The notes below the pieces were generated by a model, which made no database searches, was not told where the DNA came from, and saw only the letters and a list, made by a program, of their open reading frames with translations. This document shows, one piece after another, positions 47,090 through 64,000 of a stretch of 64,000 bases of DNA; the stretch's first letter is position 1; every line of letters begins with the position of its first letter. This stretch comes from a virus (taxonomy: Duplodnaviria; Caudoviricetes). Both the position numbers and the translations under genes were made by a program. The DNA lies in the IMG/VR virus record IMGVR_UViG_3300025671_008697; one strand, 5' to 3'.

Positions 47090-47093
47090 AGAG

Positions 47094-48224: not shown

Positions 48225-48952
48225 AAGATCACTTACAAGATATAGTACAACACACACATGGTTTAGGTGTAATTGACCTAGTAAAAATTGTAGGCAGCGA
48301 CAGTGAAACGGCATTAGAAGCACTAGCAGAAGACCGCAGTGTTATCGTTCAAGCCAAATTCAAAGGAGTAGTTGCAGACTTTATTGGCACGTTTGGTATG
48401 CCTAACTTGGGCAAACTAAACACTATTCTTAATATTCCAGAATATCGAGAAGACGCCAGCATTGCAGTCGCACGTCAAGACCGCAATGGTGAAAGTGTTC
48501 CAGTAGGTGTACACTTTGAAAACAAAGCAGGAGACTTTAAAAACGACTATCGTTTTATGGCTAGTGAAATCATTTCTGATAAACTTAAAACTGTTAAGTT
48601 TAAAGGTGTAAAGTGGAATGTAGACATTGTGCCCAGCGTGGCCAGTATTCAGCGTCTCAAGTTTCAGGCACAGGCCAACAGTGAAGAAACTACGTTTACT
48701 GCTCGTACAGAAGGCACGGACTTGAAGTTTTTCTTTGGTGACCATAGCAGTCACGCAGGTAACTTTGTGTTCCAAACTGATGTCAGCGGTACACTCAGTA
48801 AATCGTGGGCATGGCCTGTAGCAGTTGTAATCAGCATTTTAAACTTGCCCGGTGATAAGACATTTAAAATCAGTGATGAAGGTGCCGCAATGATTACAGT
48901 AGACAGTGGCATTGCCGAATATAACTATATTCTGCCAGCACAGACAAAATAA
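48221..48952 (+). CDS. Probable DNA sliding clamp (gp45-like)
   Basis: 243 aa with repeated alpha/beta pattern; follows the polymerase; clamp loader also present in the window. Confidence 0.55.
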   Translation: MKDHLQDIVQHTHGLGVIDLVKIVGSDSETALEALAEDRSVIVQAKFKGVVADFIGTFGMPNLGKLNTILNIPEYREDASIAVARQDRNGESVPVGVHFENKAGDFKNDYRFMASEIISDKLKTVKFKGVKWNVDIVPSVASIQRLKFQAQANSEETTFTARTEGTDLKFFFGDHSSHAGNFVFQTDVSGTLSKSWAWPVAVVISILNLPGDKTFKISDEGAAMITVDSGIAEYNYILPAQTK

Positions 48953-49140
48953 TGAATTATGATACCTTAGTCACGCTGAAAGTTTTACAACAAGAAATCA
49001 GTGTGCTCAAGAATAAGATTATGCCAGAAGATAGTGGACACATTTATACTGCTATCAGCGTGATTAAGGATCGTATAAAAGAATTAGAATGTGAACTAAC
49101 ACCAGAAGAACAAACTTGGTACGCACTAAATGCCAACTAA
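48952..49140 (+). CDS. Hypothetical small protein
   Basis: 62 aa, overlaps both neighbours. Confidence 0.5.
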   Translation: MNYDTLVTLKVLQQEISVLKNKIMPEDSGHIYTAISVIKDRIKELECELTPEEQTWYALNAN

Positions 49141-50689
49141 AGACGATTTAACACAAAAACAAAAAGACTACGCAGTATTCTTACCTGCGCTCAGTAGTTT
49201 TTACAGCAGAGATGTTAGCAAACAACAGTTAGACCCTAACTACATTGATCCAGCACGAGTACCCCAAGACTTTGAAAATGGAGTAGAAGGCTTAAACTGG
49301 ATGAACAAAAATGAAGGCTACTTTACCTATCATTGGAGTTTGTATTCAGCAGGACACGCAGACTTGAACTTGAACAAGATTGGTGGGCGTGATGACATGG
49401 TGCGTAATCGAAATCGTAAAAACGCATTTGTGTTGGGCGATAGCGGTGGCTTTCAGATTGGTAAAGGTGTCTGGGAAGGCAACTGGAAAGATCCTAACTG
49501 CCCACAGGCTGCTAAAAAACGTAAGCAAGTATTAGAGTGGATGGATGCTTACATGGATCGTGGCATGATCCTTGATATTCCTGCTTGGGTCGCTCGTAGT
49601 CCTGCAGGGCAACAGGCAACAGGCATTACCACATATGCAGAAGCAGTGGCGGGCACTAGCATCAACAACGAGTACTTTATGCAGAACCGCAATGGTAACT
49701 GTAAGTTCTTAAACGTACTGCAAGGCGAAACACACGCCGAAGCAGATGACTGGTACGAGCAAATGAAACATTACTGTGATCCCAAACAACACGCACAGCC
49801 GTTTGAAGGTTGGGCAATGGGTGGGCAGAATATGTGTGATGTACACCTTGCACTACGCCGTATTGTTGCGTTAAGGTTCGATGGATTATTGGAACCGGGA
49901 CTGCACGATTGGATGCACTTTCTTGGCACAAGCAAATTAGAGTGGGCAACTCTACTTACAGACATTCAACGTGCAGTCCGAAAGTACCATAACGAAAACT
50001 TTACAATCAGTTTTGACTGTGCCAGTCCTTTCCTTGCCAGCGCCAACGGACAGATTTATTATGATGTTACCATAGAGGACCGCAGTAAGTGGAGTTACTT
50101 GATGCAACCCAGCATCGACGACAAAAAGTATGCAAAAGATTTTCGTCCTTTACGTGACACTATACTACAGGACGGGATATTTGAATCATTCTTGGAAAGT
50201 CCCATCAGTGAACGTCTCAAAGCCAAAGACGTTTGTATCTATGCGCCAGGCGACTTGAACAAACTGGGCAAAGAAGGACGTACAAGTTGGGACAGTTTCA
50301 GTTACACACTACAAATGGGACACAACGTATGGACTCACTTGTATGCTGTACAGGAAGCCAATCGTCAATATGACGCAGGCCTGTATCCCGAAATGTTAGT
50401 AGCAACTACCAGCAACAAAAAGGCTTTCAGGACTTATGACAGAAACTTCTTCCGTGACATTGTGGATGATATCTTTGCTACCAGTGACAGAAGCCGTGCT
50501 GAAGAACTGATTGAACACTACAACCGTTATTGGTTAAGCATTATCGGCACACGTGGTGCAGTTGGTAAGAAAACTGTAAACAGTAAAACACAGTTCTTTA
50601 ACTTGTTTGAAACCGAAGAAGTGGAAGAACATCACAGAGATGACAGTGACTTGGATGAATCTAAACTCGAAGCACTGGAACAAGAATGA
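49130..50689 (+). CDS. tRNA-guanine transglycosylase-fold protein (DpdA-like base-exchange enzyme)
   Basis: GDSGGFQIG, MILDIP, LQG, GWAMGG, HFLGTS, SFDCASP match TGT-fold motifs; folE and queD-like genes nearby. Confidence 0.75.
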   Translation: MPTKDDLTQKQKDYAVFLPALSSFYSRDVSKQQLDPNYIDPARVPQDFENGVEGLNWMNKNEGYFTYHWSLYSAGHADLNLNKIGGRDDMVRNRNRKNAFVLGDSGGFQIGKGVWEGNWKDPNCPQAAKKRKQVLEWMDAYMDRGMILDIPAWVARSPAGQQATGITTYAEAVAGTSINNEYFMQNRNGNCKFLNVLQGETHAEADDWYEQMKHYCDPKQHAQPFEGWAMGGQNMCDVHLALRRIVALRFDGLLEPGLHDWMHFLGTSKLEWATLLTDIQRAVRKYHNENFTISFDCASPFLASANGQIYYDVTIEDRSKWSYLMQPSIDDKKYAKDFRPLRDTILQDGIFESFLESPISERLKAKDVCIYAPGDLNKLGKEGRTSWDSFSYTLQMGHNVWTHLYAVQEANRQYDAGLYPEMLVATTSNKKAFRTYDRNFFRDIVDDIFATSDRSRAEELIEHYNRYWLSIIGTRGAVGKKTVNSKTQFFNLFETEEVEEHHRDDSDLDESKLEALEQE

Positions 50690-51381
50690 TTTTTGAAAAA
50701 AACGACACGCAAACAAAGCAACGTGACCCTAATAGGTCACCAGTTATGCATGCAGAAATTGCACATCTGTTTCCTGTACCTTTGTACGTTAAAGAAAATG
50801 CTGTGGATTCTGCATTAACTGAATGTTTACAAAATCCAGACAATCGAGAACCTCATTTAATGATAGACAATTGGGGGCATGTCAGCAAAGACAACTATTA
50901 TCTAAATCAAGAAAAGTGTCAGGCATTAAAATCCGCTCTCACTGCTTATGTAAATGACATGGCGAATAATGTGTTAGGGTTTGCTGGAGAGTTTGTAATT
51001 ACACAAAGTTGGATTAGTACCAAAAAGCCTTATCAAAGTCATCAACTTCATACACATCCTAACAGTATTATTAGCGGTGTATTTTATTATGACAATCCAG
51101 AAGACGCTAGCCAAATTAGTTTTGTGAAGCCAAACTTTACTAGTTCTATATATAGTTTGAAACCGATTCGTAATGATGAGAACAATGTTTTCACTGCAGA
51201 TGAAATGCATATTAACGTAAAGAATACTATGCTGCTTTTATTTCCTAGCTATTTACAGCACACTGTTTCGATGAACGAAAGCCAAGTAAATAGATATAGC
51301 CTAGCATTTAATACTATGCCCAGGTATCAGTTAGGATTACAGAACGACTTAACACAACTTAAAATGCCAAACTTTGAATAA
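50686..51381 (+). CDS. 2OG-Fe(II) oxygenase-like protein
   Basis: LFPVPLY, HTHPNSIISGVFY, LFPSYLQHTV, RYSLAFN. Confidence 0.75.
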   Translation: MIFEKNDTQTKQRDPNRSPVMHAEIAHLFPVPLYVKENAVDSALTECLQNPDNREPHLMIDNWGHVSKDNYYLNQEKCQALKSALTAYVNDMANNVLGFAGEFVITQSWISTKKPYQSHQLHTHPNSIISGVFYYDNPEDASQISFVKPNFTSSIYSLKPIRNDENNVFTADEMHINVKNTMLLLFPSYLQHTVSMNESQVNRYSLAFNTMPRYQLGLQNDLTQLKMPNFE

Positions 51382-51391
51382 GGAGACGACT

Positions 51392-51595
51392 ATGTATGAA
51401 ACCCGTATTAAACACCTTGAAGAAATGCACCGAGTATTAGATAGTAAAATTGAGGCGTTAGAAAAAACAGGTATATATGAAGATCATGCTCTTGCAAATA
51501 TGAAAAAGCAAAAACTTCAAATTAAAGATGAACTAAGACGGCTCACCAGATTGCAATGGGAACATAATCACGAAACTGTAAACTTCGACGACTAA
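51392..51595 (+). CDS. DUF465/YdcH-like coiled-coil protein
   Basis: HRVLDSKI...MKKQKLQIKDEL; SD AAGGAG supports ATG 51392. Confidence 0.65.
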   Translation: MYETRIKHLEEMHRVLDSKIEALEKTGIYEDHALANMKKQKLQIKDELRRLTRLQWEHNHETVNFDD

Positions 51596-51597
51596 TT

Positions 51598-52077
51598 ATG
51601 GCACAACTATACAGAATCACACCCTTGGAAAAGAAAAGCATCGAATTTGTAATCGAATGTTATCAAAAATTAGAAGATGGAGATACCAGAGGTTTTACAG
51701 CAACATTTCTCTACCGTTGGGGACAGGGGTTTAGAGAACTAGACAATCCTGTAAGTAAGTGGGAAGCAACCAGTGACGATGGTGTAAGTTGTGATCCCAC
51801 AATCGGTTGGGGAGCAGAACTAGATGACGGCATCAGTACATGGGTTGATTTCGACGGCGATTGGACTGATGCAGAACGAGAAGAAATTGAAGCCTACTGT
51901 GAAGGCGAACTAGAGGATGATGAAGGACGCTGTTGCGAAGCATGGTTGTTTGATGGAGATCACGAATACGAAATCGAAATGGACGAAATTGTAATTCATG
52001 GTCCCGTTAAAATTGACTTAGTAGACGAAGACAACTATAATACTGTAATCGAAGAAAACGTAGAACCTCAAGAATGA
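51598..52077 (+). CDS. Hypothetical acidic protein
   Basis: 159 aa, strongly D/E-rich. Confidence 0.6.
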   Translation: MAQLYRITPLEKKSIEFVIECYQKLEDGDTRGFTATFLYRWGQGFRELDNPVSKWEATSDDGVSCDPTIGWGAELDDGISTWVDFDGDWTDAEREEIEAYCEGELEDDEGRCCEAWLFDGDHEYEIEMDEIVIHGPVKIDLVDEDNYNTVIEENVEPQE

Positions 52078-52970
52078 AAAGTTTAGTTATTGGCATGGGT
52101 ATAGGCCAACTATACCTTGCTGTATTGAAAAACATTGGCTCAGAAGTAATCACCGTAGACACAAACGAAAATGCCGGAGCACATTTTGCCAGCGTGGACA
52201 GTGCATTAGAACGGCATCCATTTTTTGATACTGTACATATCTGCACTCCAAACTTTACACACTATGATTTGGCAGCAAAGGTAGCACCCTACACAAAAAT
52301 TGTTTTTGTGGAAAAACCCGGTGTTGCTACCGCAGAACAATGGCTGTCATTGCTAACTACATTTCCTAAAACACGTTTCATGATGGTTAAAAACAATCAG
52401 TGGCGTGATGAGTTTGTGGACTACAAAAAGATTGCTGAAAGTGCGGACACTATCTTGTTTAAATGGATTAACCGGAACCGCGTACCCAAACCAGGTAGTT
52501 GGTTTACTGATAAGAAACTGGCATATGGTGGAGTTAGCAGAGACTTGTTACCTCACTTGCTAAGTTATTACACAGGATTCTTTTCGGACTTTGCCAAATC
52601 TGTACCTAAAGTAAAACTTGTAAAGCAACGTTGGACTATCGATGACTTGGCAGATAGTGACTATGGTGAAGTTGATCCTAATGGTCATTATAATGTAGAC
52701 GATAGGGTGGAATTGGAAATGAAGCATAACGGCAAACTGTTGTTCTTTATTGCAGATTGGCGCAGCAATGATAAAGATGACATCGGACTAACATTTATTG
52801 CAGAAGGCGGCGCAAGATTTGAATTTGAACTAGGTCTCTGTCCAGAAAGTGCATACGAAATAATGATTCGTAGTGCCGTAGATAATCTAAATAACAGTGA
52901 CTTCTGGCAACAACATATTAAACAGGATCTTTGGATTCACGAAGCAATAAGCAATGTCACAGCAAGTTAA
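52074..52970 (+). CDS. Gfo/Idh/MocA-family NAD(P)-dependent oxidoreductase
   Basis: VIGMGIG, HICTPNFTH, VFVEKP, GGVSRDLLPH. Confidence 0.85.
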   Translation: MKSLVIGMGIGQLYLAVLKNIGSEVITVDTNENAGAHFASVDSALERHPFFDTVHICTPNFTHYDLAAKVAPYTKIVFVEKPGVATAEQWLSLLTTFPKTRFMMVKNNQWRDEFVDYKKIAESADTILFKWINRNRVPKPGSWFTDKKLAYGGVSRDLLPHLLSYYTGFFSDFAKSVPKVKLVKQRWTIDDLADSDYGEVDPNGHYNVDDRVELEMKHNGKLLFFIADWRSNDKDDIGLTFIAEGGARFEFELGLCPESAYEIMIRSAVDNLNNSDFWQQHIKQDLWIHEAISNVTAS

Positions 52971-53871
52971 AGTATTATCCACCGTAGGTCAAGGTGAGTT
53001 TGTAGAAACAGACTACACCTTACCTGAATTACAACCCGATGAAATTTTAGTCAAAGCCATAATGACCGGCGTGTGTCGCAGTGACATTGACATGATGCAG
53101 GGCACGTTTGGACCACTGCCATTAGACATGCAGGGACATGAAGGATTGGGAATTGTTGCTGCCAAAGGCACGCAAGTACATGACGTTATAGTAGGCGACT
53201 ATGTGGCTACCAGAGGTGAACCTGCTTATGCTGATTTCTATCGCAGTAGATCCAATGAATATGTGTGGGTGCCAGAAGCACTACCTAAATATATTTTAGA
53301 ACCAGTGGCCTGTGGAATCAATGTCATACATCAACCTTTGCGTGAAATTGCAGAACGCAGTGGACCAGGACGAAGGTTATTGTTGTTAGGCAGTGGATTT
53401 TTGGCTTGGGTGGCCTACCACACCATCCTACTTAATCATTTGGAATTTGACGTAGATGTTGTGGGTACTAGCAATCGTGCGCTTTGGCAAGATACACTCA
53501 AATCGTATCCGCAGGACTGCGAATACGATGTTGTCATTGATTTGAGTGGTCGATATGATGTGTTTACTGGCGTATACAACGCCAAAGAAAGTTTGTTGGT
53601 AGTGGGTGTACAAAATACTGTAACCACAGACTTTGGTAGTTTACTTTGGAAAGCCTGCACTATCATGTTTCCCAGTCCGAGAACAGATGGTTTCTATAGT
53701 GCAATGAAATCTGCCGAATATTGGATAACCAATGGCGATATTGTAGTTGACAGTTTTTGGACAAAAGGTTATAATAGATACACAGAATGGCAACAGGCAT
53801 TTCTAGATGGAGCAAATCGTCCCGACGGTTACAGTCGAGGATACATTTATTGGGGTAAAAATGACAATTGA
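52954..53871 (+). CDS. Zinc-binding (MDR) sugar/alcohol dehydrogenase-like protein
   Basis: GVCRSD, GHEGLG, GDYV, LEPVACG, LLGSGFL. Confidence 0.85.
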   Translation: MSQQVKVLSTVGQGEFVETDYTLPELQPDEILVKAIMTGVCRSDIDMMQGTFGPLPLDMQGHEGLGIVAAKGTQVHDVIVGDYVATRGEPAYADFYRSRSNEYVWVPEALPKYILEPVACGINVIHQPLREIAERSGPGRRLLLLGSGFLAWVAYHTILLNHLEFDVDVVGTSNRALWQDTLKSYPQDCEYDVVIDLSGRYDVFTGVYNAKESLLVVGVQNTVTTDFGSLLWKACTIMFPSPRTDGFYSAMKSAEYWITNGDIVVDSFWTKGYNRYTEWQQAFLDGANRPDGYSRGYIYWGKNDN

Positions 53872-54379
53872 TACAAGCGGTCGAAAACAAGTAGACTACT
53901 TTGTTGGTGTAGAAGTAGAAAATACTATCATGAAAGGTGAGCGTACACTGTTTGTAGTGGGCGTAAAACCTGTTGACGAAATTGTCGAGATCGCAGAACG
54001 TGAAGGCGTAAGACATTTATACTTTGGTACCAGCCAAAGTTTTCATCCTGCCAATCCTTATGAATGGGCACAGTGGGATGATATGATTAAGCCATTGTTG
54101 GTTAAAAACTATTGGGTCACACTGGACTTTGGTGTTGAGTATGCTCCAGAGATTCACGAAGAATCTTGGAATGAGTACAACACATTCATTCCTATGATCT
54201 CAGTTAAACTGCCTTACATTAAGCAGTATAACTATCACGCAACACTTAAGATTGATGACAACACTTGGGGTGACACTAACCCTGGTGTTTGGTGTCATCC
54301 TCTTAATGAATTACTTAAACGACGTGTCTACACAGACTGGAAAGACTATGTAGGCGACGAACCTATAGGTGCAAAATGA
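53861..54379 (+). CDS. Hypothetical protein
   Basis: ATG 53861 overlaps the dehydrogenase stop, with GGGG SD. Confidence 0.6.
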   Translation: MTIDTSGRKQVDYFVGVEVENTIMKGERTLFVVGVKPVDEIVEIAEREGVRHLYFGTSQSFHPANPYEWAQWDDMIKPLLVKNYWVTLDFGVEYAPEIHEESWNEYNTFIPMISVKLPYIKQYNYHATLKIDDNTWGDTNPGVWCHPLNELLKRRVYTDWKDYVGDEPIGAK

Positions 54380-54819
54380 ATCAAGAACAAAGAGAACAAG
54401 TTAATCGTATCATGGAACGAGCAGACCGTAAAGTCTGGGTAACGTTTCGCAAAGAAGGCATCCATCGCTACCCAGCGGCGGCAACAGATCCTGCATTAGC
54501 AACTGGAAACGAGTATGATGTTAGTTTTCTTGGCGTGCCACATCGACACATTTTCCACTTTCGTGTCTGGATCGACGTACTACACAATGATAGAGACATT
54601 GAATTCATACAGTTTAAACGCTGGTTGGAAAATCTCTACCGCGATGGTACTTTAGCATTAGACTACAAGAGTTGCGAAATGATGAGCGATGACTTGTACG
54701 TACAAATTAGCAGTCGTTATCCGGATCGTGCAGTATGGATTGAAGTATCAGAAGATGGCGAGAATGGCGCACTGATCCGTTATGAAACCACTCACCCTAA
54801 CTTATCTGTCAAAATTTGA
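54376..54819 (+). CDS. QueD-like T-fold protein (DpdL-like candidate)
   Basis: EGIHRYP, FLGVPHRHIFHF, HNDRDIEF, SCEMM, VSEDGENGA. Confidence 0.65.
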   Translation: MNQEQREQVNRIMERADRKVWVTFRKEGIHRYPAAATDPALATGNEYDVSFLGVPHRHIFHFRVWIDVLHNDRDIEFIQFKRWLENLYRDGTLALDYKSCEMMSDDLYVQISSRYPDRAVWIEVSEDGENGALIRYETTHPNLSVKI

Positions 54820-55685
54820 TTAATATATTTTTTGCTCCAGGCACATTTGGTAGTACCATGGAATACATGCTCAGAAACTTTACTAAAGATTTTGAAAATG
54901 TAAAAGGTAATATTATGCTAGATGGTTCAATGCATTCATTTAAAAAAGAATGGCATGTTGCATCCTTGGATAAGACTGAGACTTATTCAGAAGAAATAGA
55001 AATTTCAACAGTGACCTATCCGTGGTATGGGAAATCATTAGACGAAATTTTTAATGTATGGCCTGGTGATCTAAAAAAATCAAAAAATGTTTGTATAAAA
55101 GTAAAAGACCTAGAGGCTGGAGAACTAAATTTATTATTCTTTTTTTATAAAATTGCGAAAAGTATTCTATCAGACTATTTTGCCGCCGACAAACATTTTG
55201 CACGATGGAACTCAAACTATACCAATCATAAAGATATGCAAAAATGGGAGAAGCGAGAATGGTATAGTTTATTTTATATAGGCTTGCTCAATGACTGGTT
55301 AAATGTAGAAAAACCGATAAATCAAATTGGTAATTTCTTACTAATTAATAATATAGATATTCTTAATAATTTAGACATTGAGTTTACAAAAATTGTCGAT
55401 CATTGCGGCTTAACTGAAGATAAATCTATAGAGTATTTTGAATTTGTCACAAAATGGACTAAGGCACAACAATATATTTTAGAAGAATTTAAATTAATAG
55501 ATAAAGTGGTATTATCTACAATAAATGGCTTAGATTTTGATTGGTCTCAAGATAGACTTTGTTTTACTTCAGAGTGTATAATACAAAAAAGATTACGCGA
55601 TAATGGGTATGAAATAAAGTGCTACAATCTAAATGATTTTCCAACCAATAGTGAACAACTATATAACTTACTTGAAAAACAATAG
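54816..55685 (+). CDS. Hypothetical AT-rich protein, possibly sulfotransferase-like
   Basis: N-terminal FFAPGTFGST Gly loop. Confidence 0.5.
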   Translation: MINIFFAPGTFGSTMEYMLRNFTKDFENVKGNIMLDGSMHSFKKEWHVASLDKTETYSEEIEISTVTYPWYGKSLDEIFNVWPGDLKKSKNVCIKVKDLEAGELNLLFFFYKIAKSILSDYFAADKHFARWNSNYTNHKDMQKWEKREWYSLFYIGLLNDWLNVEKPINQIGNFLLINNIDILNNLDIEFTKIVDHCGLTEDKSIEYFEFVTKWTKAQQYILEEFKLIDKVVLSTINGLDFDWSQDRLCFTSECIIQKRLRDNGYEIKCYNLNDFPTNSEQLYNLLEKQ

Positions 55686-55694
55686 GAGAAAGTA

Positions 55695-55886
55695 ATGGCA
55701 GCAAAATGGCTTGAAAAATATCTTACTATGAAGCCAGAAGTCACAAAAATCTTTGATGACTTAGAACAGTATCGTGATTACTGCAAATTTAACTTTGTCA
55801 AGTTCGACGAGCGGGACTTGTACAAGAGTGATGCATATCGCAAATTTGATCGACAGCGTAATCGTCGAGAACGACAAAATGGCTAA
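55695..55886 (+). CDS. Hypothetical small protein
   Basis: SD AGGAG; 63 aa. Confidence 0.6.
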   Translation: MAAKWLEKYLTMKPEVTKIFDDLEQYRDYCKFNFVKFDERDLYKSDAYRKFDRQRNRRERQNG

Positions 55887-56952
55887 CGTATTTTTAGTTG
55901 ACTTAGAATCGGTTGAAACACGTTACACTGGTCAATGGCAGTCACATATCCCAGAACTGTTAAAGAAAGCAGGTCATAATGTTCAAGTTTTATCTGGTCC
56001 TACGGACATTCCTAGTGCCACTACTCCTGGCGCCTTTCTTAATTTTGGTGGGACTAATATCTATAAGTCTAGTCAAGTCGAAGCAATGGGTAGACTATTT
56101 TGCAGTGGGGGAGTTGGGCGTGGTGACCATTTTCTTTTTACTGACGCTTGGCATCCAGGCATTATTAACCTAAAGTACATGAGTGAACTACTGGATATTC
56201 CAGTAAAGATTCACGCACTTTGGCACGCCGGTAGTTATGATCCAGCAGACTTTCTTGGAAGACTGATTGGTGATGCTCCTTGGGTACGCTATGCTGAAAA
56301 AAGTTTCTTTGAAGCCATAGACTACAACTATTTTGCCACAGACTTTCATATCAACATGTTTGCTGGTAACTTGTTAAATGCAAATCTTGGCACAATGTAC
56401 AAGTATCAGGAGTCCAAAAAAGTAATTCGCACAGGTTGGCCCATGGAGTATATGGACCAGACACTGTCTCCATACAAAGGTATGACTAAGCGTGACTTAA
56501 TTGTGTTTCCGCATCGTATCGCTCCAGAGAAACAGGTCGCCATATTCCGTGACTTAAAAGAACAACTACCTGAATATGAGTTTGTAGTCTGCCAAGATCA
56601 GGAACTTACCAAGAATGAATATCACAATATTTTAGGCGAAGCCAAAATTGTGTTCAGTGCCAGTTTGCAGGAAACCTTAGGTATAGGTGCATATGAAGGC
56701 GCTATTGTAGATGCTATTCCCATGGTGCCTGACAGGCTCAGTTACAGTGAAATGTATTATGAGGGATTCAAATATCCCACAGAGTGGACAGAAAATTTTA
56801 GCAAGTACATGATCTACAAAGACCATTTGGTTAATCATATTCGTGCCACTATGGAACACTATGAACGGCGTTTGCCAGAACTTAAAAATCAGACACAGGA
56901 CCTGACTGACAACTTCTTCAGTGCAGGATCATTATTAAAAAATATAAACTAA
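55879..56952 (+). CDS. GT-B-fold glycosyltransferase
   Basis: ATG 55879 (MANVFLVD); FPHRIAPEKQ, SASLQETLGIGAYEG, VPDRLSYSEM. Confidence 0.75.
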   Translation: MANVFLVDLESVETRYTGQWQSHIPELLKKAGHNVQVLSGPTDIPSATTPGAFLNFGGTNIYKSSQVEAMGRLFCSGGVGRGDHFLFTDAWHPGIINLKYMSELLDIPVKIHALWHAGSYDPADFLGRLIGDAPWVRYAEKSFFEAIDYNYFATDFHINMFAGNLLNANLGTMYKYQESKKVIRTGWPMEYMDQTLSPYKGMTKRDLIVFPHRIAPEKQVAIFRDLKEQLPEYEFVVCQDQELTKNEYHNILGEAKIVFSASLQETLGIGAYEGAIVDAIPMVPDRLSYSEMYYEGFKYPTEWTENFSKYMIYKDHLVNHIRATMEHYERRLPELKNQTQDLTDNFFSAGSLLKNIN

Positions 56953-57546
56953 ATGTCTTTTGATACCGTTTTCGAATTTGAAAAAAGAATAGCAGAATAT
57001 TTTGGATCTCCTTACGTTATCAGTACGGACTCCTGCACCCACGCTATTGAATTATGTTTGAGATACGAGAATCCCGAAACAGTATCTATTCCTCAGCACA
57101 CTTATATTAGCATACCGTTCACTTTAATTAAATGCGGTATTGATTTTTCTTGGCAGGAAAATTATTGGCAGGATTATTATAATATTTCAAATACTAATAT
57201 TATTGACGGTGCCGTTTATTGGAAAATTCAAGGTTATATTCCTGGAAGTTTATTATGTTTAAGTTTTCAGCACAAAAAACAACTTTCTTTGGGAAGAGGC
57301 GGCGCTATTTTATTAGATAATAAAGAAAAATATGAATCACTAAGCCGCATGCGATATGATGGAAGAGATCTAAGTCGTCCTTGGGCAGAACAAGATTTTA
57401 CAGAAATAGGATATCACTATTATATGACGCCAGAAACTGCTCAACTTGGAATAGAAAAATTAAAGGATATTAATCCAAGCCAATCAAAAACTTGGTCGTG
57501 GCAGGATTATCCAGATTTAACTAAATTGACAGTTTTCAAAAAATGA
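56953..57546 (+). CDS. Miniature DegT/DnrJ/EryC1-type PLP aminotransferase-like protein 1
   Basis: FEKRIAEYFG, CTHAIEL, IIDGA, SFQHKKQLSLGRGG, GYHYYM; only 197 aa. Confidence 0.7.
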   Translation: MSFDTVFEFEKRIAEYFGSPYVISTDSCTHAIELCLRYENPETVSIPQHTYISIPFTLIKCGIDFSWQENYWQDYYNISNTNIIDGAVYWKIQGYIPGSLLCLSFQHKKQLSLGRGGAILLDNKEKYESLSRMRYDGRDLSRPWAEQDFTEIGYHYYMTPETAQLGIEKLKDINPSQSKTWSWQDYPDLTKLTVFKK

Positions 57547-58133
57547 CTTTCAACTCCATTTTAAAGTTTGAACAGGAGTTAGCCGAATTCACAGGCGCTC
57601 CTTACGCAGTCATGACTGACTGCTGTACTCATGCCATTGAACTTTGTTTTAGGCTAAATCGTCCCGATGTACTCAAGTTTACTGCTTACACTTATCTTAG
57701 CATTCCAATGTTGATGCACAAATTGGCTATACAGTATGAATATATGGACGAGCAGTGGACCAGCGAATACAGATTTTATGGATCAAATGTTTGGGACTGT
57801 GCTCGACGACTTGAAAAAGACATGTATAGACCCGAGCGCATCCAGTGTTTGAGTTTTGGTTGGGACAAGCCTTTACAAATAGGCCGTGGTGGTGCTATAC
57901 TATTAGACGACAAAAACAGTTATCAAAGGCTAATCGAAATGAGATACGATGGTAGAGACTTAACACAAGTGCCGTGGCAGGAGCAACGTGTGTTTAGAGT
58001 TGGTTATCATTATCGTCCCACAATTGAAGAAGCCGAGGCTGCATCCCAAGAACTTAAAAAAATTAAAATTACAACCCCCAAACCTAAATACAAACAGTAT
58101 CCGGACTTAAGAACTATAGAGATTGTAAAATGA
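57543..58133 (+). CDS. Miniature DegT-type aminotransferase-like protein 2
   Basis: FEQELAEFTG, CTHAIEL, VWDCA, SFGWDKPLQIGRGG, GYHY; 196 aa. Confidence 0.7.
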   Translation: MTFNSILKFEQELAEFTGAPYAVMTDCCTHAIELCFRLNRPDVLKFTAYTYLSIPMLMHKLAIQYEYMDEQWTSEYRFYGSNVWDCARRLEKDMYRPERIQCLSFGWDKPLQIGRGGAILLDDKNSYQRLIEMRYDGRDLTQVPWQEQRVFRVGYHYRPTIEEAEAASQELKKIKITTPKPKYKQYPDLRTIEIVK

Positions 58134-58921
58134 ATAAGAATATATTAATTTCTGGATGTTCTTGGGCAACTGGTTGTGGTCTACCTGAAGAGAAAAACAA
58201 TCCACGAAATTGGCCTACCCAACTAGTAAATGCAATTTGGCCTGGCGCAGATATGAACAATATTGCACAGAATGGAAATAATAACGACACAATATTCTTT
58301 ATGACGGCAGAAGAACTACTAAAAAACAGATATGATTGTGTTATTGTAGAATGGTCAGAAACTGCACGATTAAATTACAATATAGGATTAGAATTATATC
58401 ACACTTTGTCCAGGTGTGAATCTGACCATGACATAAATTTAGTAAATCACGAAACAGTCAAAGCAGACTGGTTGTATAAAAATATTAAACAAAATATAGT
58501 TAAAATTTCAAATGAGCATTGGTTTATTTTAAACATGGTAAGATATTTAAATATTTTAATACAATTACAAAAACCATATGGTGAGATATTTTTTGTAAAC
58601 GGTGGCGGGTGCTGGCCGGATGGCTATTTTAATAGGTGCGATTCCTGGACCGATGCCGACTCATACACAAAAAATGACATCCTACAAATGGATTTTAGAG
58701 ATGACGAAGAAATAGCACAACTCTATAGAAAAGTACATGATGACTATGAAAATGCAGGCGGAATCAATGAATACCGTTGGCTTAATCTATATAACTCATT
58801 GCATACGTCAAAAATAGATATAGCGTCTGACACCGATTTACATCCAGGAATATTATCACAAGATAAATTTGCTACAGAATTCATTTTAAAAATTAAAAAT
58901 ATTGGCAAACAAAATGTTTAA
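58130..58921 (+). CDS. SGNH-like hydrolase-fold protein
   Basis: ISGCSWATG, NIAQNGNNN, DLHPG. Confidence 0.55.
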   Translation: MNKNILISGCSWATGCGLPEEKNNPRNWPTQLVNAIWPGADMNNIAQNGNNNDTIFFMTAEELLKNRYDCVIVEWSETARLNYNIGLELYHTLSRCESDHDINLVNHETVKADWLYKNIKQNIVKISNEHWFILNMVRYLNILIQLQKPYGEIFFVNGGGCWPDGYFNRCDSWTDADSYTKNDILQMDFRDDEEIAQLYRKVHDDYENAGGINEYRWLNLYNSLHTSKIDIASDTDLHPGILSQDKFATEFILKIKNIGKQNV

Positions 58922-59462
58922 AAAAATTCAACTGTCAGATTTTAACTTTGATATCTTTTTGAATGCAGACTACACTCAACATACAGGAAGTTGTATAAAC
59001 CACCAGGTGCATGAATTAACTGATATACACACAAAGTATGGTGGATTTCCTACCTCTTATTGTTTAGAAAATACTATGATTCATCAACTTTGGTGGACCA
59101 AGGAACAAATAGATTTTGAAGATTTAGGAAATAAATTAGGTATAGACGTTGTCACGGTATCTAGTATTTTGCAACCTCCAGGGTGTGTAGTGCCTTTGCA
59201 TCGTGATACTTTTTATCAAATAAACAAAAAATATCCGGAACGTCAAGACCATAAAGTACGTGCAAATATTTTTTTAGAAAATTATAAAGTAGGTCATTTT
59301 GTACAGTATCTAGATGAAAATCAAAAAATTTATACAGTTGATAATTGGGATCGAGGGGATGGTTATATATGGGATAGTGAAATTTTACATTTAAGTTGTA
59401 ATGCAGGTATGCAAGACAAGTACACACTTCAGGTTTCAGGATTTTTAAAACAAGATAATTGA
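58914..59462 (+). CDS. 2OG-Fe(II)/cupin-fold oxygenase-like protein
   Basis: VVPLHRD, RANIFLE, LHLSCNAG..KYTLQ. Confidence 0.6.
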   Translation: MFKKIQLSDFNFDIFLNADYTQHTGSCINHQVHELTDIHTKYGGFPTSYCLENTMIHQLWWTKEQIDFEDLGNKLGIDVVTVSSILQPPGCVVPLHRDTFYQINKKYPERQDHKVRANIFLENYKVGHFVQYLDENQKIYTVDNWDRGDGYIWDSEILHLSCNAGMQDKYTLQVSGFLKQDN

Positions 59463-59471
59463 GATTACAAA

Positions 59472-60179
59472 ATGACAGAAAAAACACTAGCACAGGCCTT
59501 ACGTGAAAGAATGCGATCAGACAACAAACGTTTCTTTGCAGGAGATAACATCAGCGATTACGTAACAGACTCTGATCGTGAACAGTTGATCGAAGAAGCA
59601 ACAACTGCATTTGAATCTGTATTAGATGTATTGCTGATTGACAGGGAAAATGATCCCAACAGTCATGACACTGCTCGCAGACTGGCAAAAATGTACTTTA
59701 ATGAAATTATGGCAGGACGTTATGAGCCCAAGCCAGATGCTACTGCATTTCCCAACGAATCCAATCATGAACTGGATGAACCCTATGATGGTATGTTGGT
59801 TGTACGCAGTGAACTAAAAAGTATGTGCAGTCACCATCACCAGCCAGTTAGTGGTGTTGCTTACATCGGCATTTTGGCTGCTAACAAATTGATTGGTTTG
59901 AGCAAGTATACACGTATTGCACAATGGTGTGCTCGACGTGGTACACTACAAGAAGAACTTGCTATGACCATTGCCAGAGAAATTATGTGTGCCACAGACA
60001 GCAAAGATGTTGGTGTTTACATTCAGGCTACACATGGATGTTGTGAAAACAGAGGCATTATGGCACATAGCAGTCTTACACAGACCACAGTGCTCAAAGG
60101 TGCCTTTAAACAAGATCCAGGTACTAAGAAAGAGTTTATGGACAATATTAAACTACAACAGGAGTTTGCGCCGCGATGA
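59472..60179 (+). CDS. folE: GTP cyclohydrolase I
   Basis: TARRLAKM, SMCSHHHQP, GLSKYTRI, LQEE, HGCCENRG. Confidence 0.95.
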   Translation: MTEKTLAQALRERMRSDNKRFFAGDNISDYVTDSDREQLIEEATTAFESVLDVLLIDRENDPNSHDTARRLAKMYFNEIMAGRYEPKPDATAFPNESNHELDEPYDGMLVVRSELKSMCSHHHQPVSGVAYIGILAANKLIGLSKYTRIAQWCARRGTLQEELAMTIAREIMCATDSKDVGVYIQATHGCCENRGIMAHSSLTQTTVLKGAFKQDPGTKKEFMDNIKLQQEFAPR

Positions 60180-60595
60180 TACTTAAATTACTGGAACGTT
60201 TAGGTCGTCGACGCATTGTAATGGATCGTGTCAACGATGAACCCTACTTAGAACGTTACTATCTTTTCTTAAAGGATAGGCAGCGTTTTCCTTTTAATGT
60301 ATTCCTACATAAGTTTCTTAAGTCAGACCCAGATGATTTACACGATCATCCCTGGCCCTATGCTACGCTGATCCTAAAAGGTGGTTATTGGGAAACTACT
60401 CCAGAAGGACGTTTTTGGAGAAGTCCAGGACACTTTAGAATCTGTAAGGCCAACAGTCTACATAGAATCGAACTTGACCCCGAGGTTGAATGTTGGACTG
60501 TGTTTATGCCAGGCCCTAAACAGCGTGAATGGGGTTTTATCAAAAACGGTACTTGGACACAATGGGAACAATACTTAGCAGGTAGAGCAAAATGA
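60176..60595 (+). CDS. Cupin-fold protein
   Basis: LHDHPW, GGYWE, LHRIEL, REWGF. Confidence 0.65.
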   Translation: MILKLLERLGRRRIVMDRVNDEPYLERYYLFLKDRQRFPFNVFLHKFLKSDPDDLHDHPWPYATLILKGGYWETTPEGRFWRSPGHFRICKANSLHRIELDPEVECWTVFMPGPKQREWGFIKNGTWTQWEQYLAGRAK

Positions 60596-61098
60596 AACAA
60601 GAAATTATCAAACACCGAGAATTCAAAAGCATGGTGCAAAGCATCGGGCGCAAACTAACCAAGGTCACTAGTACATGGCAACCAGACTACATTGTGGGTA
60701 TTACTCGTGGTGGCCTGTATCCTGCACTGTTGCTCAGTCATTATTTAGACACGCCAATGCATGCACTTGGTGTAAGTCTACGTGACGAAAAAGAAAATGG
60801 TTGCGAAAGTAATCTATGGATGGCAGAAGATGCTTTCGCTGGCAAAAATATTCTTGTTGTAGATGACATCAATGACACTGGTGCTACCTTTAATTGGATA
60901 GTCGAAGATTGGCAGGCTGGATGCTTGCCCTATGACGAACGTTGGGCCATGGTATGGAACAACAACGTGCGTTTCTGTGCTATAGTAAATAATGCTGCCA
61001 GTGAGTTTCAATACAAAGTAGACTATACTGCTATGCCTATAGACAAAAGCAAAAACGACTGTTGGATTGTTTTCCCGTGGGAGAATCAGGGCGAATAA
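60592..61098 (+). CDS. Type I phosphoribosyltransferase (purine PRTase-like)
   Basis: GITRGG, PRPP-binding ILVVDDINDTGAT, WIVFPWE. Confidence 0.9.
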   Translation: MKQEIIKHREFKSMVQSIGRKLTKVTSTWQPDYIVGITRGGLYPALLLSHYLDTPMHALGVSLRDEKENGCESNLWMAEDAFAGKNILVVDDINDTGATFNWIVEDWQAGCLPYDERWAMVWNNNVRFCAIVNNAASEFQYKVDYTAMPIDKSKNDCWIVFPWENQGE

Positions 61099-61130
61099 TT
61101 AAAAAAGCAGGAGATAATTTACTTTAGATA

Positions 61131-62594
61131 ATGCATTTACAGTATTTAGATAATAAAAATAAAACACAAATAGACTTTGTTTTAGTTACAGTACCATGGA
61201 CTGACAGTTCTATGCCTTTAATGGCGCCAGCTGCTCTTAAACCTGTTATTGAGCAGGAAGGCTTATCTTGTTTAGCAATAGATTTGAATGCTGAAATCTT
61301 TGATTACACTAAGACTGCAAGTAATAAAGATAGTCTTATTCAATTTTTCTTTAATGGATACACAGATTCTGAAGCAGCAGCAACAGAACTAGAAGAGTTA
61401 TTTGTAGAAATTGCAAATAGAATTTTATCATATAGACCTAAGTATGTAGGATTGAGTATCTTTAGTTACGTTTGCCAACATAGTGCAAAATGGATTGCAT
61501 ATTTTCTAAAGAAAATGGATCCTGACTTAATTGTGTTAGTTGGTGGTGCAGGTTGTTTGAATACATTCACCGGACCATCAGAATTTGTAGACGAACTTAA
61601 AAATCTAAATCTAATAGATTATCATATCAGAGGTGATGCAGAGCATTCGTTGGCAGAATTTCTTAGGAAGAATAAAACATTCCATGGTATAAATTCGCTA
61701 ACTTGGAGTGAAATGAGCAATGATGAAATACGTTCATTGCCGATTCCCGACTACGATGATTATATTTTTGATTTTTACACACAAAAAACTATTCCTTTAG
61801 TCGGAAGTAGAGGATGTGTCAGACGATGTACCTTTTGTGATTATATTGCTAATTGGCATAAATTTACCTGGAGAGATGCTGACTCTATTTTCTCTGAGAT
61901 GCTGTTTCAAAATAAAAAATATAAGGTTAACAAATTTAAATTTCAAGACAGTCTAACTAACGGCAGCATTTCTGAATTTAGAAAATTAACCAAACTATTA
62001 GCAACACATAACAAAGATAATCCAAACAATGAATTTCGTTGGTCTGGTTATTATATATTTAGAGATGTAAACAACACCAGCGATTCAGATTGGGAATTGA
62101 TTTATAAAAGTGGCGCGGAAGTTCTTATGGTAGGCATTGAGAATCTTAATCAACATATTCGTTATGATATAGGAAAAAAATTTAACAATGAATCTATAAT
62201 ATATCATTTAGAAAAAGCACAACAATATAAGATCAAAATTTCCATGCTTAACATTGTAGGATACGTAACAGAAACAAGGTCTGATATAGAATATATTAAA
62301 CAATGGTTACGAGATAATACCAGATTTAAAGATAATATAGTTATACAGTGGGGCGGTACTTTAGGTATTTTTCCTAACACTTATTTGGAAAAAAATAAAG
62401 ATAGACTAGGAATAAGTATGATAGGAAATGGTCCTCCGCTCTGGATTAACAAGCAAACCGGTAGTACACCCTCAATGAGGGCGTCTTGGGCAAAAGAATT
62501 AAATGATTTTAGCAAAAGATTAGGGTACTCAGTTCATAATAATATTGATAATCATTACCTATTAGAAATGCTTATGCAAAATGAACAAGTATAA
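61131..62594 (+). CDS. Cobalamin-binding radical SAM protein
   Basis: N-terminal B12-binding-like domain (YVGLSIFS, VGGAG), SRGCVRRCTFC (CxxxCxxC), GIEN. Confidence 0.85.
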   Translation: MHLQYLDNKNKTQIDFVLVTVPWTDSSMPLMAPAALKPVIEQEGLSCLAIDLNAEIFDYTKTASNKDSLIQFFFNGYTDSEAAATELEELFVEIANRILSYRPKYVGLSIFSYVCQHSAKWIAYFLKKMDPDLIVLVGGAGCLNTFTGPSEFVDELKNLNLIDYHIRGDAEHSLAEFLRKNKTFHGINSLTWSEMSNDEIRSLPIPDYDDYIFDFYTQKTIPLVGSRGCVRRCTFCDYIANWHKFTWRDADSIFSEMLFQNKKYKVNKFKFQDSLTNGSISEFRKLTKLLATHNKDNPNNEFRWSGYYIFRDVNNTSDSDWELIYKSGAEVLMVGIENLNQHIRYDIGKKFNNESIIYHLEKAQQYKIKISMLNIVGYVTETRSDIEYIKQWLRDNTRFKDNIVIQWGGTLGIFPNTYLEKNKDRLGISMIGNGPPLWINKQTGSTPSMRASWAKELNDFSKRLGYSVHNNIDNHYLLEMLMQNEQV

Positions 62595-63003
62595 TGTAAA
62601 ACTAAAACTAGAATTTGGTAGTATCAATGGAAAATTTATGAATGTAGAATATCAAATTAATTCTAGTAGGGTAAAAAAAGTTTTAGTTAGTGAAAATGAA
62701 GGATTACTCGATGATGAAATTTCTTTGCCTGGAAAGGTACGTTTATTTTTTTCCAATAAAGACAATGCTACAGATACTATAGTTAACGAAAGTAATGAAA
62801 TAGTTGCTGATTTATACGTAAAAATATTAGGAATAACACTAGATAATTTTGATATTCCTCAAGTCTATATACAAAAAAACCTAAAGTTAGTTACAGAAAA
62901 AAATAATCAAATTAACACTAACTATATTGGCTTTAATGGAACTATGGAAATACCATTCGATCAAAATTCGGTATTTAAACAAATCAATTGGTTCAAAAAA
63001 TGA
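62581..63003 (+). CDS. Hypothetical beta-rich protein
   Basis: 140 aa; resembles 19855..20301 by eye. Confidence 0.55.
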   Translation: MNKYNVKLKLEFGSINGKFMNVEYQINSSRVKKVLVSENEGLLDDEISLPGKVRLFFSNKDNATDTIVNESNEIVADLYVKILGITLDNFDIPQVYIQKNLKLVTEKNNQINTNYIGFNGTMEIPFDQNSVFKQINWFKK

Positions 63004-63008
63004 GCAAA

Positions 63009-63014
63009 TAAATA
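63009..63014 (+). promoter_or_regulatory. TAAATA late-type promoter
   Basis: 6 nt before an ATG that opens the queD leader. Confidence 0.55.
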
Positions 63015-63020
63015 TTCTAT

Positions 63021-63088
63021 ATGCGGCCTTTTTGGAATCATCCCGCTATACAAATTCTGCTTCCTATGCTATAATTTTTACATAGGGA
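63021..63088 (+). promoter_or_regulatory. Candidate preQ1-I-like pseudoknot plus SD-sequestering hairpin in the queD leader
   Basis: P1 GCGG/CCGC, P2 GGAAU/AUUCU, A-rich L3 UAUACAA; anti-SD UUCCUAUG pairs with CAUAGGGA. Confidence 0.45.
63047..63075 (+). promoter_or_regulatory. Sigma70-type extended -10 promoter inside the queD leader
   Basis: TATACA-N17-TATAAT with TG at 63067-63068. Confidence 0.5.
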
Positions 63089-63093
63089 ACAAC

Positions 63094-63618
63094 ATGGCAA
63101 AATTTTATTCTACAAAAACTTACGGCAACGACAGAGGACTAAGTTGTTGCTTTAGGCAATGGCGTGCCACGCACAGTCATTGCAGTACACTACACGGTTA
63201 TGCAATCGGTATCAAATTGGTATTCGAATGTGACACACTGGATGACAAAAACTGGTGCATGGACTTTGGCGGACTCAAAGAGTTCAAGGCCTGGGCAGAC
63301 TATATGTTTGACCATACCTTAGTAGTTGCTCGAGATGATCCTCATCTAGCGTTTTTTAAACAGATGTCCAACATGGGTCTGCCATTAGACAGCGGCAGCG
63401 GCCAAGTACAGACTGTGAAACCGCATGAACGCGAAGCTGTTTGCGATTTGCGGATTGTAGAAGGTGTTGGCTGCGAAATGTTTGCAAAAATGTGCTACGA
63501 TAAAATGGCCGAACTGATTGCCAGTGGCACCATGCGTTATCCAATCAATCCCACTGTGCGTATCAAAAGCGCAGAAGTATTTGAACACGCAGGCAACAGT
63601 GCTATCTACGAAGGGTAA
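63094..63618 (+). CDS. queD: 6-carboxytetrahydropterin synthase (QueD/PTPS)
   Basis: CSTLHGY (CxxxHG), DFGGLKE, FDHTL, VFEHAGNSA. Confidence 0.85.
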   Translation: MAKFYSTKTYGNDRGLSCCFRQWRATHSHCSTLHGYAIGIKLVFECDTLDDKNWCMDFGGLKEFKAWADYMFDHTLVVARDDPHLAFFKQMSNMGLPLDSGSGQVQTVKPHEREAVCDLRIVEGVGCEMFAKMCYDKMAELIASGTMRYPINPTVRIKSAEVFEHAGNSAIYEG

Positions 63619-63623
63619 CTACT

Positions 63624-63956: not shown

Positions 63957-63958
63957 TA

Positions 63959-64000
63959 ATGAAAAAATTACTATTAGCAATGTTGTTTGTGCCTGTCGTT
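63959..64000 (+). CDS. Start of a secreted protein, 3'-truncated by window edge
   Basis: MKKLLLAMLFVPVV signal-peptide-like start. Confidence 0.5.
   Translation, partial: MKKLLLAMLFVPVV

Follow-up and report, generated by a model that had tools for sequence, protein, structure and literature searches.

A predicted DpdL-type 7-deazaguanine DNA modification locus with a linked glycosyltransferase in an uncultured phage

Introduction

Does a phage locus that combines genes for 7-deazaguanine synthesis with sugar-modifying and other enzymes specify a new hypermodified DNA base, or a base that is already known with other genes placed around it? We addressed this question for a 64,000-nt stretch of viral DNA (Duplodnaviria; Caudoviricetes; IMG/VR record IMGVR_UViG_3300025671_008697), referred to below as the window, in which a preliminary description made from the sequence alone had recognized an extended 7-deazaguanine locus with many tailoring enzymes and a possible new hypermodified base. 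The genes in question belong to a block of 24 genes at positions 48221-63956, all on the plus strand, with overlaps at 14 junctions and gaps of no more than 38 nt, except for 90 nt ahead of queD (63004-63093). Our analysis indicates that the core of this block very probably encodes a deazaguanine DNA modification system of the DpdL type, which is a known kind of system. That the base is then further glycosylated, possibly with an amino sugar, is the reading that we favor at slightly better than even confidence, with a chemistry that we infer from the genes.

In the pathway that we propose, FolE, QueD, and QueE, the last encoded just past the window end, would convert GTP to 7-carboxy-7-deazaguanine (CDG), and DpdL would strip off its carboxyl group as proposed for Cellulophaga phage phiST, with no need for QueC. 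A 519-aa transglycosylase would then swap guanine in the phage DNA for the deazaguanine base, and a GT4-type glycosyltransferase, which we regard as integral to the module, would add a sugar to this base, either in DNA or on the free base before its insertion. In this phage, a GFO/IDH/MocA oxidoreductase, a medium-chain dehydrogenase (MDR), and small DegT-type aminotransferases would oxidize and transaminate the sugar to give an amino sugar, while a purine phosphoribosyltransferase (PRTase) would most simply recycle the guanine released in the base exchange. Our data establish the folds, motifs, homologies, and gene linkage, and from these we predict DNA as the target, the decarboxylation, all of the sugar steps, and the function of the PRTase.

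The route to the deazaguanine base

GTP cyclohydrolase I (FolE, 59472-60179) matches PF01227 at E 9e-39, and a canonical QueD of the 6-carboxytetrahydropterin synthase type (174 aa, 63094-63618), already named in the preliminary description, matches PF01242 with 50.7 bits against a cutoff of 22.4 and phrog_2389 (“QueD-like”) at E 1e-33, with a QueD model as its top NCBIfam match but under that model's cutoff. It is 37% identical to the QueD of phiST and 33% identical to that of Acidovorax phage ACP17, and all three carry the motif CxxxHGY instead of CxxxHGH. The second QueD-like protein that had been predicted is the 147-aa T-fold protein encoded at 54376-54819, which aligns both with known DpdLs and with QueDs. 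It contains FLGVPHRHIF, an exact fit to LxxxHRHxF, the motif that defines DpdL in place of the CxxxHGH of QueD (PMC10516641). By tblastn, this protein is 57% identical to the DpdL of ACP17 (E 4e-40), 56% identical to a protein of the Pseudomonas jumbo phage PA5oct, and 36% identical to phiST gp040 (E 4e-9). DpdL is a paralog of QueD that has been proposed to decarboxylate CDG (PMC10516641). The 140-aa open reading frame (ORF) at 62581-63003, which follows a radical SAM gene and which we also considered as a second QueD, has no T-fold motif and no family match and was rejected.

QueE and QueC had been reported as absent from the window, and the flanks had been suggested as the place to look for them. 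This search was half successful. A queE gene lies about 1.1 kb beyond the window end in contigs identical to the window (L007:11623-12522); its product carries the radical SAM motif CxxxCxxC as CNLDCSFC, is 43% identical to the QueE of ACP17, and has QueE models as its five best NCBIfam matches, the best at E 7e-20 and all of them under their cutoffs. QueC was found neither in the window, nor in the following 10 kb, nor in five related contigs, all of which are partial genomes. Because the DpdL route stops at CDG, the absence of QueC is expected and does not leave a gap in the pathway. The presence of DpdL also refines the earlier comparison with the deoxynucleosides dPreQ0, dADG, and dG+, since the expected base is 7-deazaguanine itself rather than 7-cyano-7-deazaguanine (preQ0), 7-amido-7-deazaguanine (ADG), or 7-formamidino-7-deazaguanine (G+).

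The closest characterized counterpart is phiST, whose DpdL-type system (PMC10516641) shares with the window FolE, a QueD with CxxxHGY, QueE, a DpdL with LxxxHRHxF, a transglycosylase of the tRNA-guanine transglycosylase (TGT) superfamily, the lack of QueC, and a location beside replication genes. The two differ in the transglycosylase, which in phiST is a DpdA3 of 259 aa that matches the 519-aa protein of the window weakly (62% probability in hhalign). They also differ in their accessory genes: the window has a glycosyltransferase, a conserved protein that we call p190, a PRTase, and sugar-tailoring genes, and phiST has none of these.

Some other genes touch on the same chemistry. In Xanthomonas phage BUDD (L099 5377-5871), a 164-aa protein annotated as “PAPS reductase family” lies between FolE and a run of glycosyltransferase, DpdA, DpdL, and QueE genes; if this protein is a short ATP pyrophosphatase of the QueC kind, as it may be, the rule that DpdL phages have no QueC would become less simple. 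A 357-kb related contig (L012), whose transglycosylase is 78% identical to that of the window, has a Vut_1/YhhQ-family gene at 20737-21381, right after QueD and a short-chain dehydrogenase; YhhQ is a family of queuosine-precursor transporters, and Vibrio phage 2.275.O encodes one as well. Within the window, a 208-aa protein at 29410-30036 has a pterin-4a-carbinolamine dehydratase domain (PF01329, E 2.5e-12), which raises the question of whether the output of FolE and of the 6-pyruvoyltetrahydropterin synthase (PTPS) family protein also goes to pterin chemistry. A Bmp/PnrA-like ABC substrate-binding protein is encoded at 12766-13842 (PF02608, E 7e-55). This family binds purine nucleosides, and the protein could bear on the purine supply for the deazaguanine pathway.

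A divergent DpdA-like transglycosylase in the replication module

The 519-aa protein (49130-50689) had been singled out as a TGT-fold enzyme. It has no match in Pfam, PHROGs, NCBIfam, or the PDB sequences, the latter searched both with phmmer and with a family profile. As no library match is available at the sequence level, its assignment as a DpdA-like guanine transglycosylase rests on fold, profile alignment, and motifs. An AlphaFold2 (AF2) model built from 43 diverse homologs reached a predicted local distance difference test score (pLDDT) of 87.7 and a predicted template modeling score (pTM) of 0.88, and its best 50 Foldseek matches in the PDB are all tRNA-guanine transglycosylases, with E-values from 3.6e-7 to 3.4e-6 and template modeling (TM) scores by target of about 0.5. 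When the family profile was aligned with E. coli TGT using hhalign (84% probability, E 7.5e-6, 180 columns), GDSGGFQ paired with TDSGGFQ, MILD with MIFD (including its Asp), LNVLQG with FGIIQG, GWAMGG with GYAVGG, and SFDCASP with MFDCVMP. Residues D104, S105, G107, and D296 are invariant in the 43 homologs, at least 90% of which retain D149 as well. D104, D149, and D296 fall on the three TGT aspartates in the profile alignment, being the counterparts of D102, D156, and D280 of the Z. mobilis enzyme, which we take to be the base-binding and covalent-intermediate aspartates.

The preliminary description had also left the place of this enzyme among the DpdA subfamilies to be established. In a search of viral structure models (BFVD), the 519-aa model matched a protein of Vibrio phage nt-1 at E 3.5e-10 and a phiST protein at E 5e-3, and in hhalign its profile matched the DpdA proteins of ACP17 and BUDD with 96% probability. 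The latter two are related by BLAST to proteins of the VH7D/KVP40 group, and that of ACP17 also to phi-ST2; VH7D, KVP40, phi-ST2, and their kin make up the DpdA2 group of the literature (PMC6884629). On the basis of the nt-1 fold match, the profile match to ACP17 and BUDD, and the BLAST kinship of these two to the VH7D group, the 519-aa protein appears to be a long, divergent branch of DpdA that is nearest to DpdA2. BLAST alone makes no such connection: the pairwise E-value to ACP17 is 0.019, and tblastn recovered no schizo-T4 vibriophage. The DpdA2 proteins of nt-1 and VH7D (PMC6884629), the DpdA proteins of ACP17 and BUDD, and the window protein all have the TGT fold without a TGT signature at the Pfam level. 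The window protein is about 100 residues longer than the others, with an extra helical C-terminal part, and whereas nt-1 and VH7D use QueC and insert preQ0-type bases, no QueC was found for the window locus.

The family is large, with at least 7,992 proteins at 90% clustering, mostly 65-86% identical, and 978 clusters at 50% identity. Among cultured phages, tblastn detected it (30-35% identity) only in the PA5oct group, Vibrio phage 2.275.O, and Sinorhizobium phage Phosso. In phage 2.275.O, the genes near the homolog include polB as well as those for a QueF-like protein, QueC, an amidotransferase, and FolE, and a 2019 survey lists this phage as having Que genes but no DpdA (PMC6884629).

The genomic position of the locus is consistent with a role in DNA. 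A family B DNA polymerase gene (polB, 44407-47079) and a class I methyltransferase gene precede the block, and 3' of the window end, in the identical contigs, two small genes, the QueE-like radical SAM gene, and more small genes are followed by a 5'-3' exonuclease/RNase H gene, so that the deazaguanine locus lies inside the replication module. In all relatives, the transglycosylase gene is placed between polB with the clamp-like gene and RNase H. The gene immediately upstream of the transglycosylase, described earlier as a clamp gene, encodes a 243-aa protein (48221-48952) and directly follows polB and the methyltransferase. Its position is as had been described, but its identity as a clamp was not confirmed by the searches: it belongs to phrog_12062, of unknown function, has no match among PDB sequences, and shares 31% identity with a protein of Phosso annotated by its depositor as sliding clamp beta. 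PA5oct, phage 2.275.O, and all related contigs have a homolog 5' of the transglycosylase, and we consider the protein to be probably a sliding clamp. The methyltransferase, an S-adenosylmethionine (SAM)-dependent enzyme encoded between polB and this gene (47094-48224), keeps its position in most of the 80 related loci described below and is missing in one subclade of them; it could belong to the modification module.

A glycosyltransferase linked to dpdL

A feature that sets this locus apart from phiST is a GT4-type (GT-B fold) glycosyltransferase of 373 aa (55831-56952). Its presence had been proposed before, and it is supported here by family matches, the EX7E motif, and homology. In an alignment of 20 members of the family, both Glu residues of EX7E (ETLGIGAYE), along with the Arg and Lys of HRIAPEKQ, which fit the basic residue expected at the donor phosphate, are invariant, and 14 of the 20 match PF00534 (Glycos_transf_1), the best at E 6.8e-12. 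The neighbors of the protein by language-model features (Atlas) are likewise Glycos_transf_1 (PF00534) families. A profile search of the PDB with the family returned only two glycosyltransferases, at a non-significant E of 0.46. The protein is 41% identical to the product of a gene next to the transglycosylase in PA5oct, 37% to an ACP17 protein, and 50% to a Phosso protein annotated as “glycosyltransferase”. A conserved small protein of 63 aa (55695-55886) is always encoded directly 5' of the glycosyltransferase in relatives.

To define what travels with the module, we mapped all genes of the block onto 80 related loci from IMG/VR, with transglycosylase identities of 63-98%, and counted occurrences in the 33 related contigs that continue for 7 kb or more on the downstream side of the transglycosylase gene. 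DpdL and the glycosyltransferase are present in all 33, p190 and FolE in 32 each, and the 63-aa ORF in 30. The linkage extends well beyond these contigs. Across 50,697 phage records, every strong homolog of the glycosyltransferase occurs in a DpdL phage and within 3 kb of dpdL, namely in Phosso, eleven PA5oct-type records, ACP17, BUDD, its fellow Xanthomonas phage X1, and Burkholderia phage BCSR5. As gene order differs between these lineages, this is not simple inheritance of a single block, and the linkage is so strict that it is hard to explain without a shared pathway. In a distant locus whose transglycosylase is 47% identical (L014), the order is DpdL, transglycosylase, glycosyltransferase, FolE, PRTase, and a QueE-like gene. 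Our literature search, which did not cover all journals, found no paper noting a glycosyltransferase in dpdA-dpdL clusters.

Among cultured phages, PA5oct offers a useful comparison. Its gene core in common with the window consists of the clamp-like protein, the transglycosylase (35% identity), the glycosyltransferase (41%), DpdL (56%), QueE, and RNase H, and the order there is polB, the 243-aa homolog, the transglycosylase, a 353-aa protein, a 125-aa protein, QueE, and RNase H. Unlike the window, PA5oct has neither the dehydrogenase pair nor DegT genes here. PA5oct DNA resists several enzymes with G-containing recognition sites, from which the authors inferred a modified G (PMC12191111). That study, a preprint on the END nuclease, does not name the transglycosylase, DpdL, or glycosyltransferase of PA5oct (PMC12191111).

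There are parallels to the glycosylation of DNA in T4, though with a different acceptor. The window enzyme resembles the T4 glucosyltransferases in being a phage GT-B enzyme coupled to a base-modification pathway and in being expected to act once the modified base is in DNA. The alpha- and beta-glucosyltransferases of T4 act on 5-hydroxymethylcytosine in DNA, whereas the acceptor in the window would be a purine with no hydroxymethyl handle, and the enzyme belongs to Glycos_transf_1 (GT4-like). We regard a further glycosylation step on deazaguanine as a well-founded prediction, with a likelihood that falls a little short of even.

Predicted sugar-tailoring genes and probable passengers

No deazaguanine pathway described so far requires as many enzymes as the block encodes, as had been pointed out before. 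These many tailoring enzymes do not form one conserved pathway, as only some of them recur across the 33 related contigs. By their recurrence, the interleaved genes fall into three classes: a core that is fixed, sugar-tailoring genes that recur, and probable passengers specific to the window.

The recurrent set includes the two sugar-type dehydrogenases and the two mini aminotransferases of the preliminary description, all of which were recovered by family searches. The first dehydrogenase is a GFO/IDH/MocA sugar oxidoreductase of 298 aa (52074-52970; PF01408, E 3e-9), and its nearest solved relative is DgpA in complex with a C-glycoside (E 7.8e-8). DgpA proteins oxidize the 3-hydroxyl of a sugar that is already attached to its aglycone. 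The second, of 305 aa, is a zinc-type MDR enzyme (52954-53871; PF08240, E 9e-11). This pair is found in 14 of the 33 contigs, always together and always between the transglycosylase and p190. The two pyridoxal phosphate (PLP)-dependent aminotransferases of the DegT type (DegT/DnrJ/EryC1 family) follow the glycosyltransferase. Copy a (197 aa, 56953-57546) matches PF01041 with 62.9 bits, and its Schiff-base lysine motif SFQHKK aligns with SFQALK of the solved aminotransferase 4zwv; copy b (196 aa, 57543-58133) matches the same family with 43.1 bits and carries SFGWDK, which likewise aligns with the lysine motif of solved enzymes. An ortholog of copy b, of about 203 aa, occurs in 20 of the 33 contigs, always immediately 3' of the glycosyltransferase, and copy a is a second copy that is about 45% identical to the single one of the relatives. 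At half of the usual two-domain length of about 360-390 aa, these proteins are a conserved mini form. The standard route to 3-amino sugars pairs a GFO-type 3-dehydrogenase with a DegT aminotransferase that acts after it, as in kanosamine synthesis and the WbpB/WbpE pair. Family membership and position suggest that the GFO, MDR, and DegT enzymes of the window tailor a sugar in a comparable way. An operon with a nucleotidyltransferase-kinase fusion lies directly upstream of polB and could supply the activated sugar.

The PRTase (168 aa, 60592-61098; PF00156, E 5e-12) is present in 22 of the 33 contigs, and a weak homolog occurs in the PA5oct cluster. Its best NCBIfam model is xanthine PRTase, at 8e-12 and under the cutoff of that model. 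The conserved protein p190 (172 aa, 53861-54379; the ORF could start at 53807) belongs to the core by occurrence. One homolog lies directly 5' of dpdA in ACP17, and another is found elsewhere in PA5oct. Its AF2 model (pLDDT 80) has no match in the PDB and matches only one unnamed cluster of the AlphaFold Database. Two identifications were rejected: a QueE-like barrel, for which the similarity is weak and partial (E 0.03-0.15) and is not evidence, and a counterpart of the “glycosylase” of Phosso.

The remaining genes recur less often or not at all. A 139-aa cupin (60176-60595) that matches phrog_4786, labeled “cysteine dioxygenase”, at E 2e-41 is found in 11 of the 33 contigs, a small DUF465 protein (51392-51595; PF04325, E 6e-11) in 7, and a 110-aa cupin (63624-63956; PF07883, E 5e-15) in 3. 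The 182-aa ORF (58914-59462, no match) occurs in 3, and the 159-aa ORF (51598-52077, no family match) and the 263-aa ORF (58130-58921, no match in any library) in 1 each. Four genes are absent from all 33: a 2-oxoglutarate (2OG)-Fe(II) oxygenase of 231 aa (50686-51381; PF13759, E 4e-23), a 275-aa ORF (54858-55685) with no Pfam or PDB match, a B12-binding radical SAM enzyme of 487 aa (61131-62594), and the 140-aa ORF that follows it. Among the 80 loci, the oxygenase and the 275-aa ORF are shared only with the two closest relatives (L018 and L019), whose transglycosylases are 98% and 88% identical to that of the window and which extend less than 7 kb downstream. A homolog of the radical SAM enzyme was found in one locus (L031), at another position, and the 140-aa ORF in none.

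The radical SAM enzyme matches PF04055 with 42.7 bits and PF02310 under its cutoff and carries CVRRCTFC at residue 229; in NCBIfam it comes closest to class B methyltransferase models but stays far under the cutoff of each. With this enzyme, the PRTase, and the two cupins, the earlier gene assignments held up, but of the two oxygenases that had been listed only the 2OG-Fe(II) enzyme did so, the second being the cupin that PHROGs labels as cysteine dioxygenase-like. We consider the oxygenase, the radical SAM enzyme, and the rare unknown ORFs to be probably passengers, and it seems rather unlikely that any of them takes part in the modification. As for the 275-aa ORF, its Atlas feature neighbors carry PF00685 (score 0.93, with a low shared-feature count), but we rejected a sulfotransferase assignment that came from language-model features only, without motif or PDB support. 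Elsewhere in the window, an APS-kinase-like P-loop kinase (that is, like adenosine 5'-phosphosulfate kinase) is encoded at 8704-9144 (PF01583, E 1.5e-8), and the distant locus L014 has a gene like it (7337-7777) after its QueE-like gene. Together with the sulfotransferase-like features of the 275-aa ORF, this gives a weak lead toward sulfation.

Alternative explanations

The explanation that survives best alongside a glycosylated base is that the phage makes plain 2'-deoxy-7-deazaguanosine (dDG), as phiST does, and that the glycosyltransferase, dehydrogenases, and aminotransferases act elsewhere, on a modified pyrimidine, a virion protein, or a host envelope sugar. The sugar genes would then sit in the module only through shared expression timing or history. 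We regard this as unlikely. The following observations speak for it or against parts of our favored reading. In phiST, DpdA3, DpdL, FolE, QueD, and QueE achieve complete replacement by dDG with no glycosyltransferase at all (PMC10516641). 7-Deazaguanine has no hydroxyl for a sugar, and dDG offers no obvious acceptor group, with N2, O6, or a ring carbon as the candidates. The sugar-nucleotide operon upstream of polB is separate from the locus, and the dehydrogenases and DegT genes vary between relatives, being missing from many of them and from both PA5oct and ACP17; they could be sugar genes with no connection to the module that were inserted at a variable site. The glycosyltransferase of the window itself has no PF00534 match at E 0.1 and is thus below Pfam significance when taken by itself, while the transglycosylase has no match to PF01702 and no CxCxxC of the TGT zinc motif CxCxxC...H. 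Heterologous tests of the proposed decarboxylase activity of DpdL failed (PMC10516641), a failure that may reflect the absence of partner proteins beside DpdL and DpdA. Finally, our literature search, with the coverage stated above, found no paper describing glycosylated deazaguanine in DNA. What speaks against plain dDG is the constancy of the glycosyltransferase, which none of the 33 related contigs lacks and which in cultured phages is found nowhere but next to dpdL, across six lineages whose gene orders are otherwise rearranged. For this reason, we retain a glycosylated deazaguanine in DNA as the favored reading.

A second alternative concerns when the base enters the DNA. The PRTase could couple the deazapurine to phosphoribosyl pyrophosphate (PRPP), as in the biosynthesis of tubercidin and toyocamycin, after which the nucleotide would be reduced, phosphorylated, and incorporated by the polymerase, or the product could be a free nucleoside. 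The glycosyltransferase would in that case decorate the free base or nucleoside, as happens in natural products of the huimycin and dapiramicin type. Consistent with this, FolE has a purine-type PRTase next to it in 22 of the 33 relatives and in L014, a weak homolog is part of the PA5oct cluster, and the nucleotide pool would offer an easy path to the complete replacement of G seen in phiST. Even so, we consider entry before replication improbable. The TGT-fold enzyme, with its catalytic aspartates intact, is conserved in every locus, while a third of the relatives have no PRTase, and the xanthine/guanine PRTase model that fits this protein best is equally compatible with salvage of released guanine. 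Furthermore, all phage deazaguanine systems studied so far are thought to act after replication through DpdA (PMC10516641).

The last alternative, that DNA is not modified at all because FolE and the PTPS-family protein serve pterin synthesis (toward tetrahydrobiopterin or folate precursors) or because the TGT-fold enzyme modifies tRNA, can draw on the dehydratase domain at 29410-30036, on FolE and PTPS being the first steps of pterin synthesis as well, and on the TGT fold being first of all that of a tRNA enzyme, but we judge it very improbable, as the PTPS-family protein falls with the phiST and ACP17 QueDs, both QueE and DpdL are encoded, no tRNA gene lies in the window, and the replication-module context shared by all relatives, along with the resistance of PA5oct DNA at G sites (PMC12191111), makes tRNA modification unlikely.

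Genome setting and host-like genes

Related viral contigs of 72-158 kb have an estimated completeness of 21-45%, which implies a genome of about 350 kb, and the source is probably an uncultured jumbo phage related to T4. A megablast search with the whole block gave no match to cultured phages. Scans for promoters and terminators returned sites no more frequently than in shuffled sequence, and an Rfam search over 44000-64000 gave nothing at E up to 1, so that known models lend no support to a preQ1-type riboswitch in the 90-nt gap before queD.

The window as a whole is rich in metabolic genes. At 4896-6338 it encodes TctA, a tricarboxylate transporter subunit, in full length (PF01970, E 4e-94), and past the window end, in the identical contigs (L007:17208-19800), there is a second TctA together with a TctC-like binding protein. 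The regions 14892-18028 and 33377-38453 encode DnaJ, a ClpB-type disaggregase, isocitrate lyase, a BoxB/PaaA-like di-iron protein, a class II aldolase, and serine hydroxymethyltransferase, so that host-like metabolic genes are unusually numerous in the window.

Implications

To our knowledge, all glycosylated DNA bases known to date are pyrimidines, such as glucosylated 5-hydroxymethylcytosine and base J. The eight deazaguanine DNA bases that have been described carry only small groups (PMC10516641). If our favored reading is correct, it would provide the first case of a glycosylated purine in natural DNA and a new class of DNA hypermodification, and as the deazapurine has no hydroxyl handle, it would also imply a new acceptor chemistry, with a glycosyltransferase acting on a purine that lacks a hydroxyl. 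The window is the fullest version of the module; it allows the recurrent extras to be separated from probable passengers, and it suggests a place for the 519-aa family next to DpdA2.

We think it possible, though somewhat short of an even chance, that jumbo phages including PA5oct, ACP17, BUDD, and Phosso, together with a lineage that has thousands of metagenomic homologs, replace guanine in their DNA with a sugar-bearing 7-deazaguanine, with an amino sugar in the phage described here. Given the size of the transglycosylase family, such a trait would be widespread in nature. It would matter for restriction, CRISPR, and glycosylase-based defenses, for the sequencing of environmental phage DNA, and for enzymology, and because cultured phages share the core of the module, the prediction is testable now.

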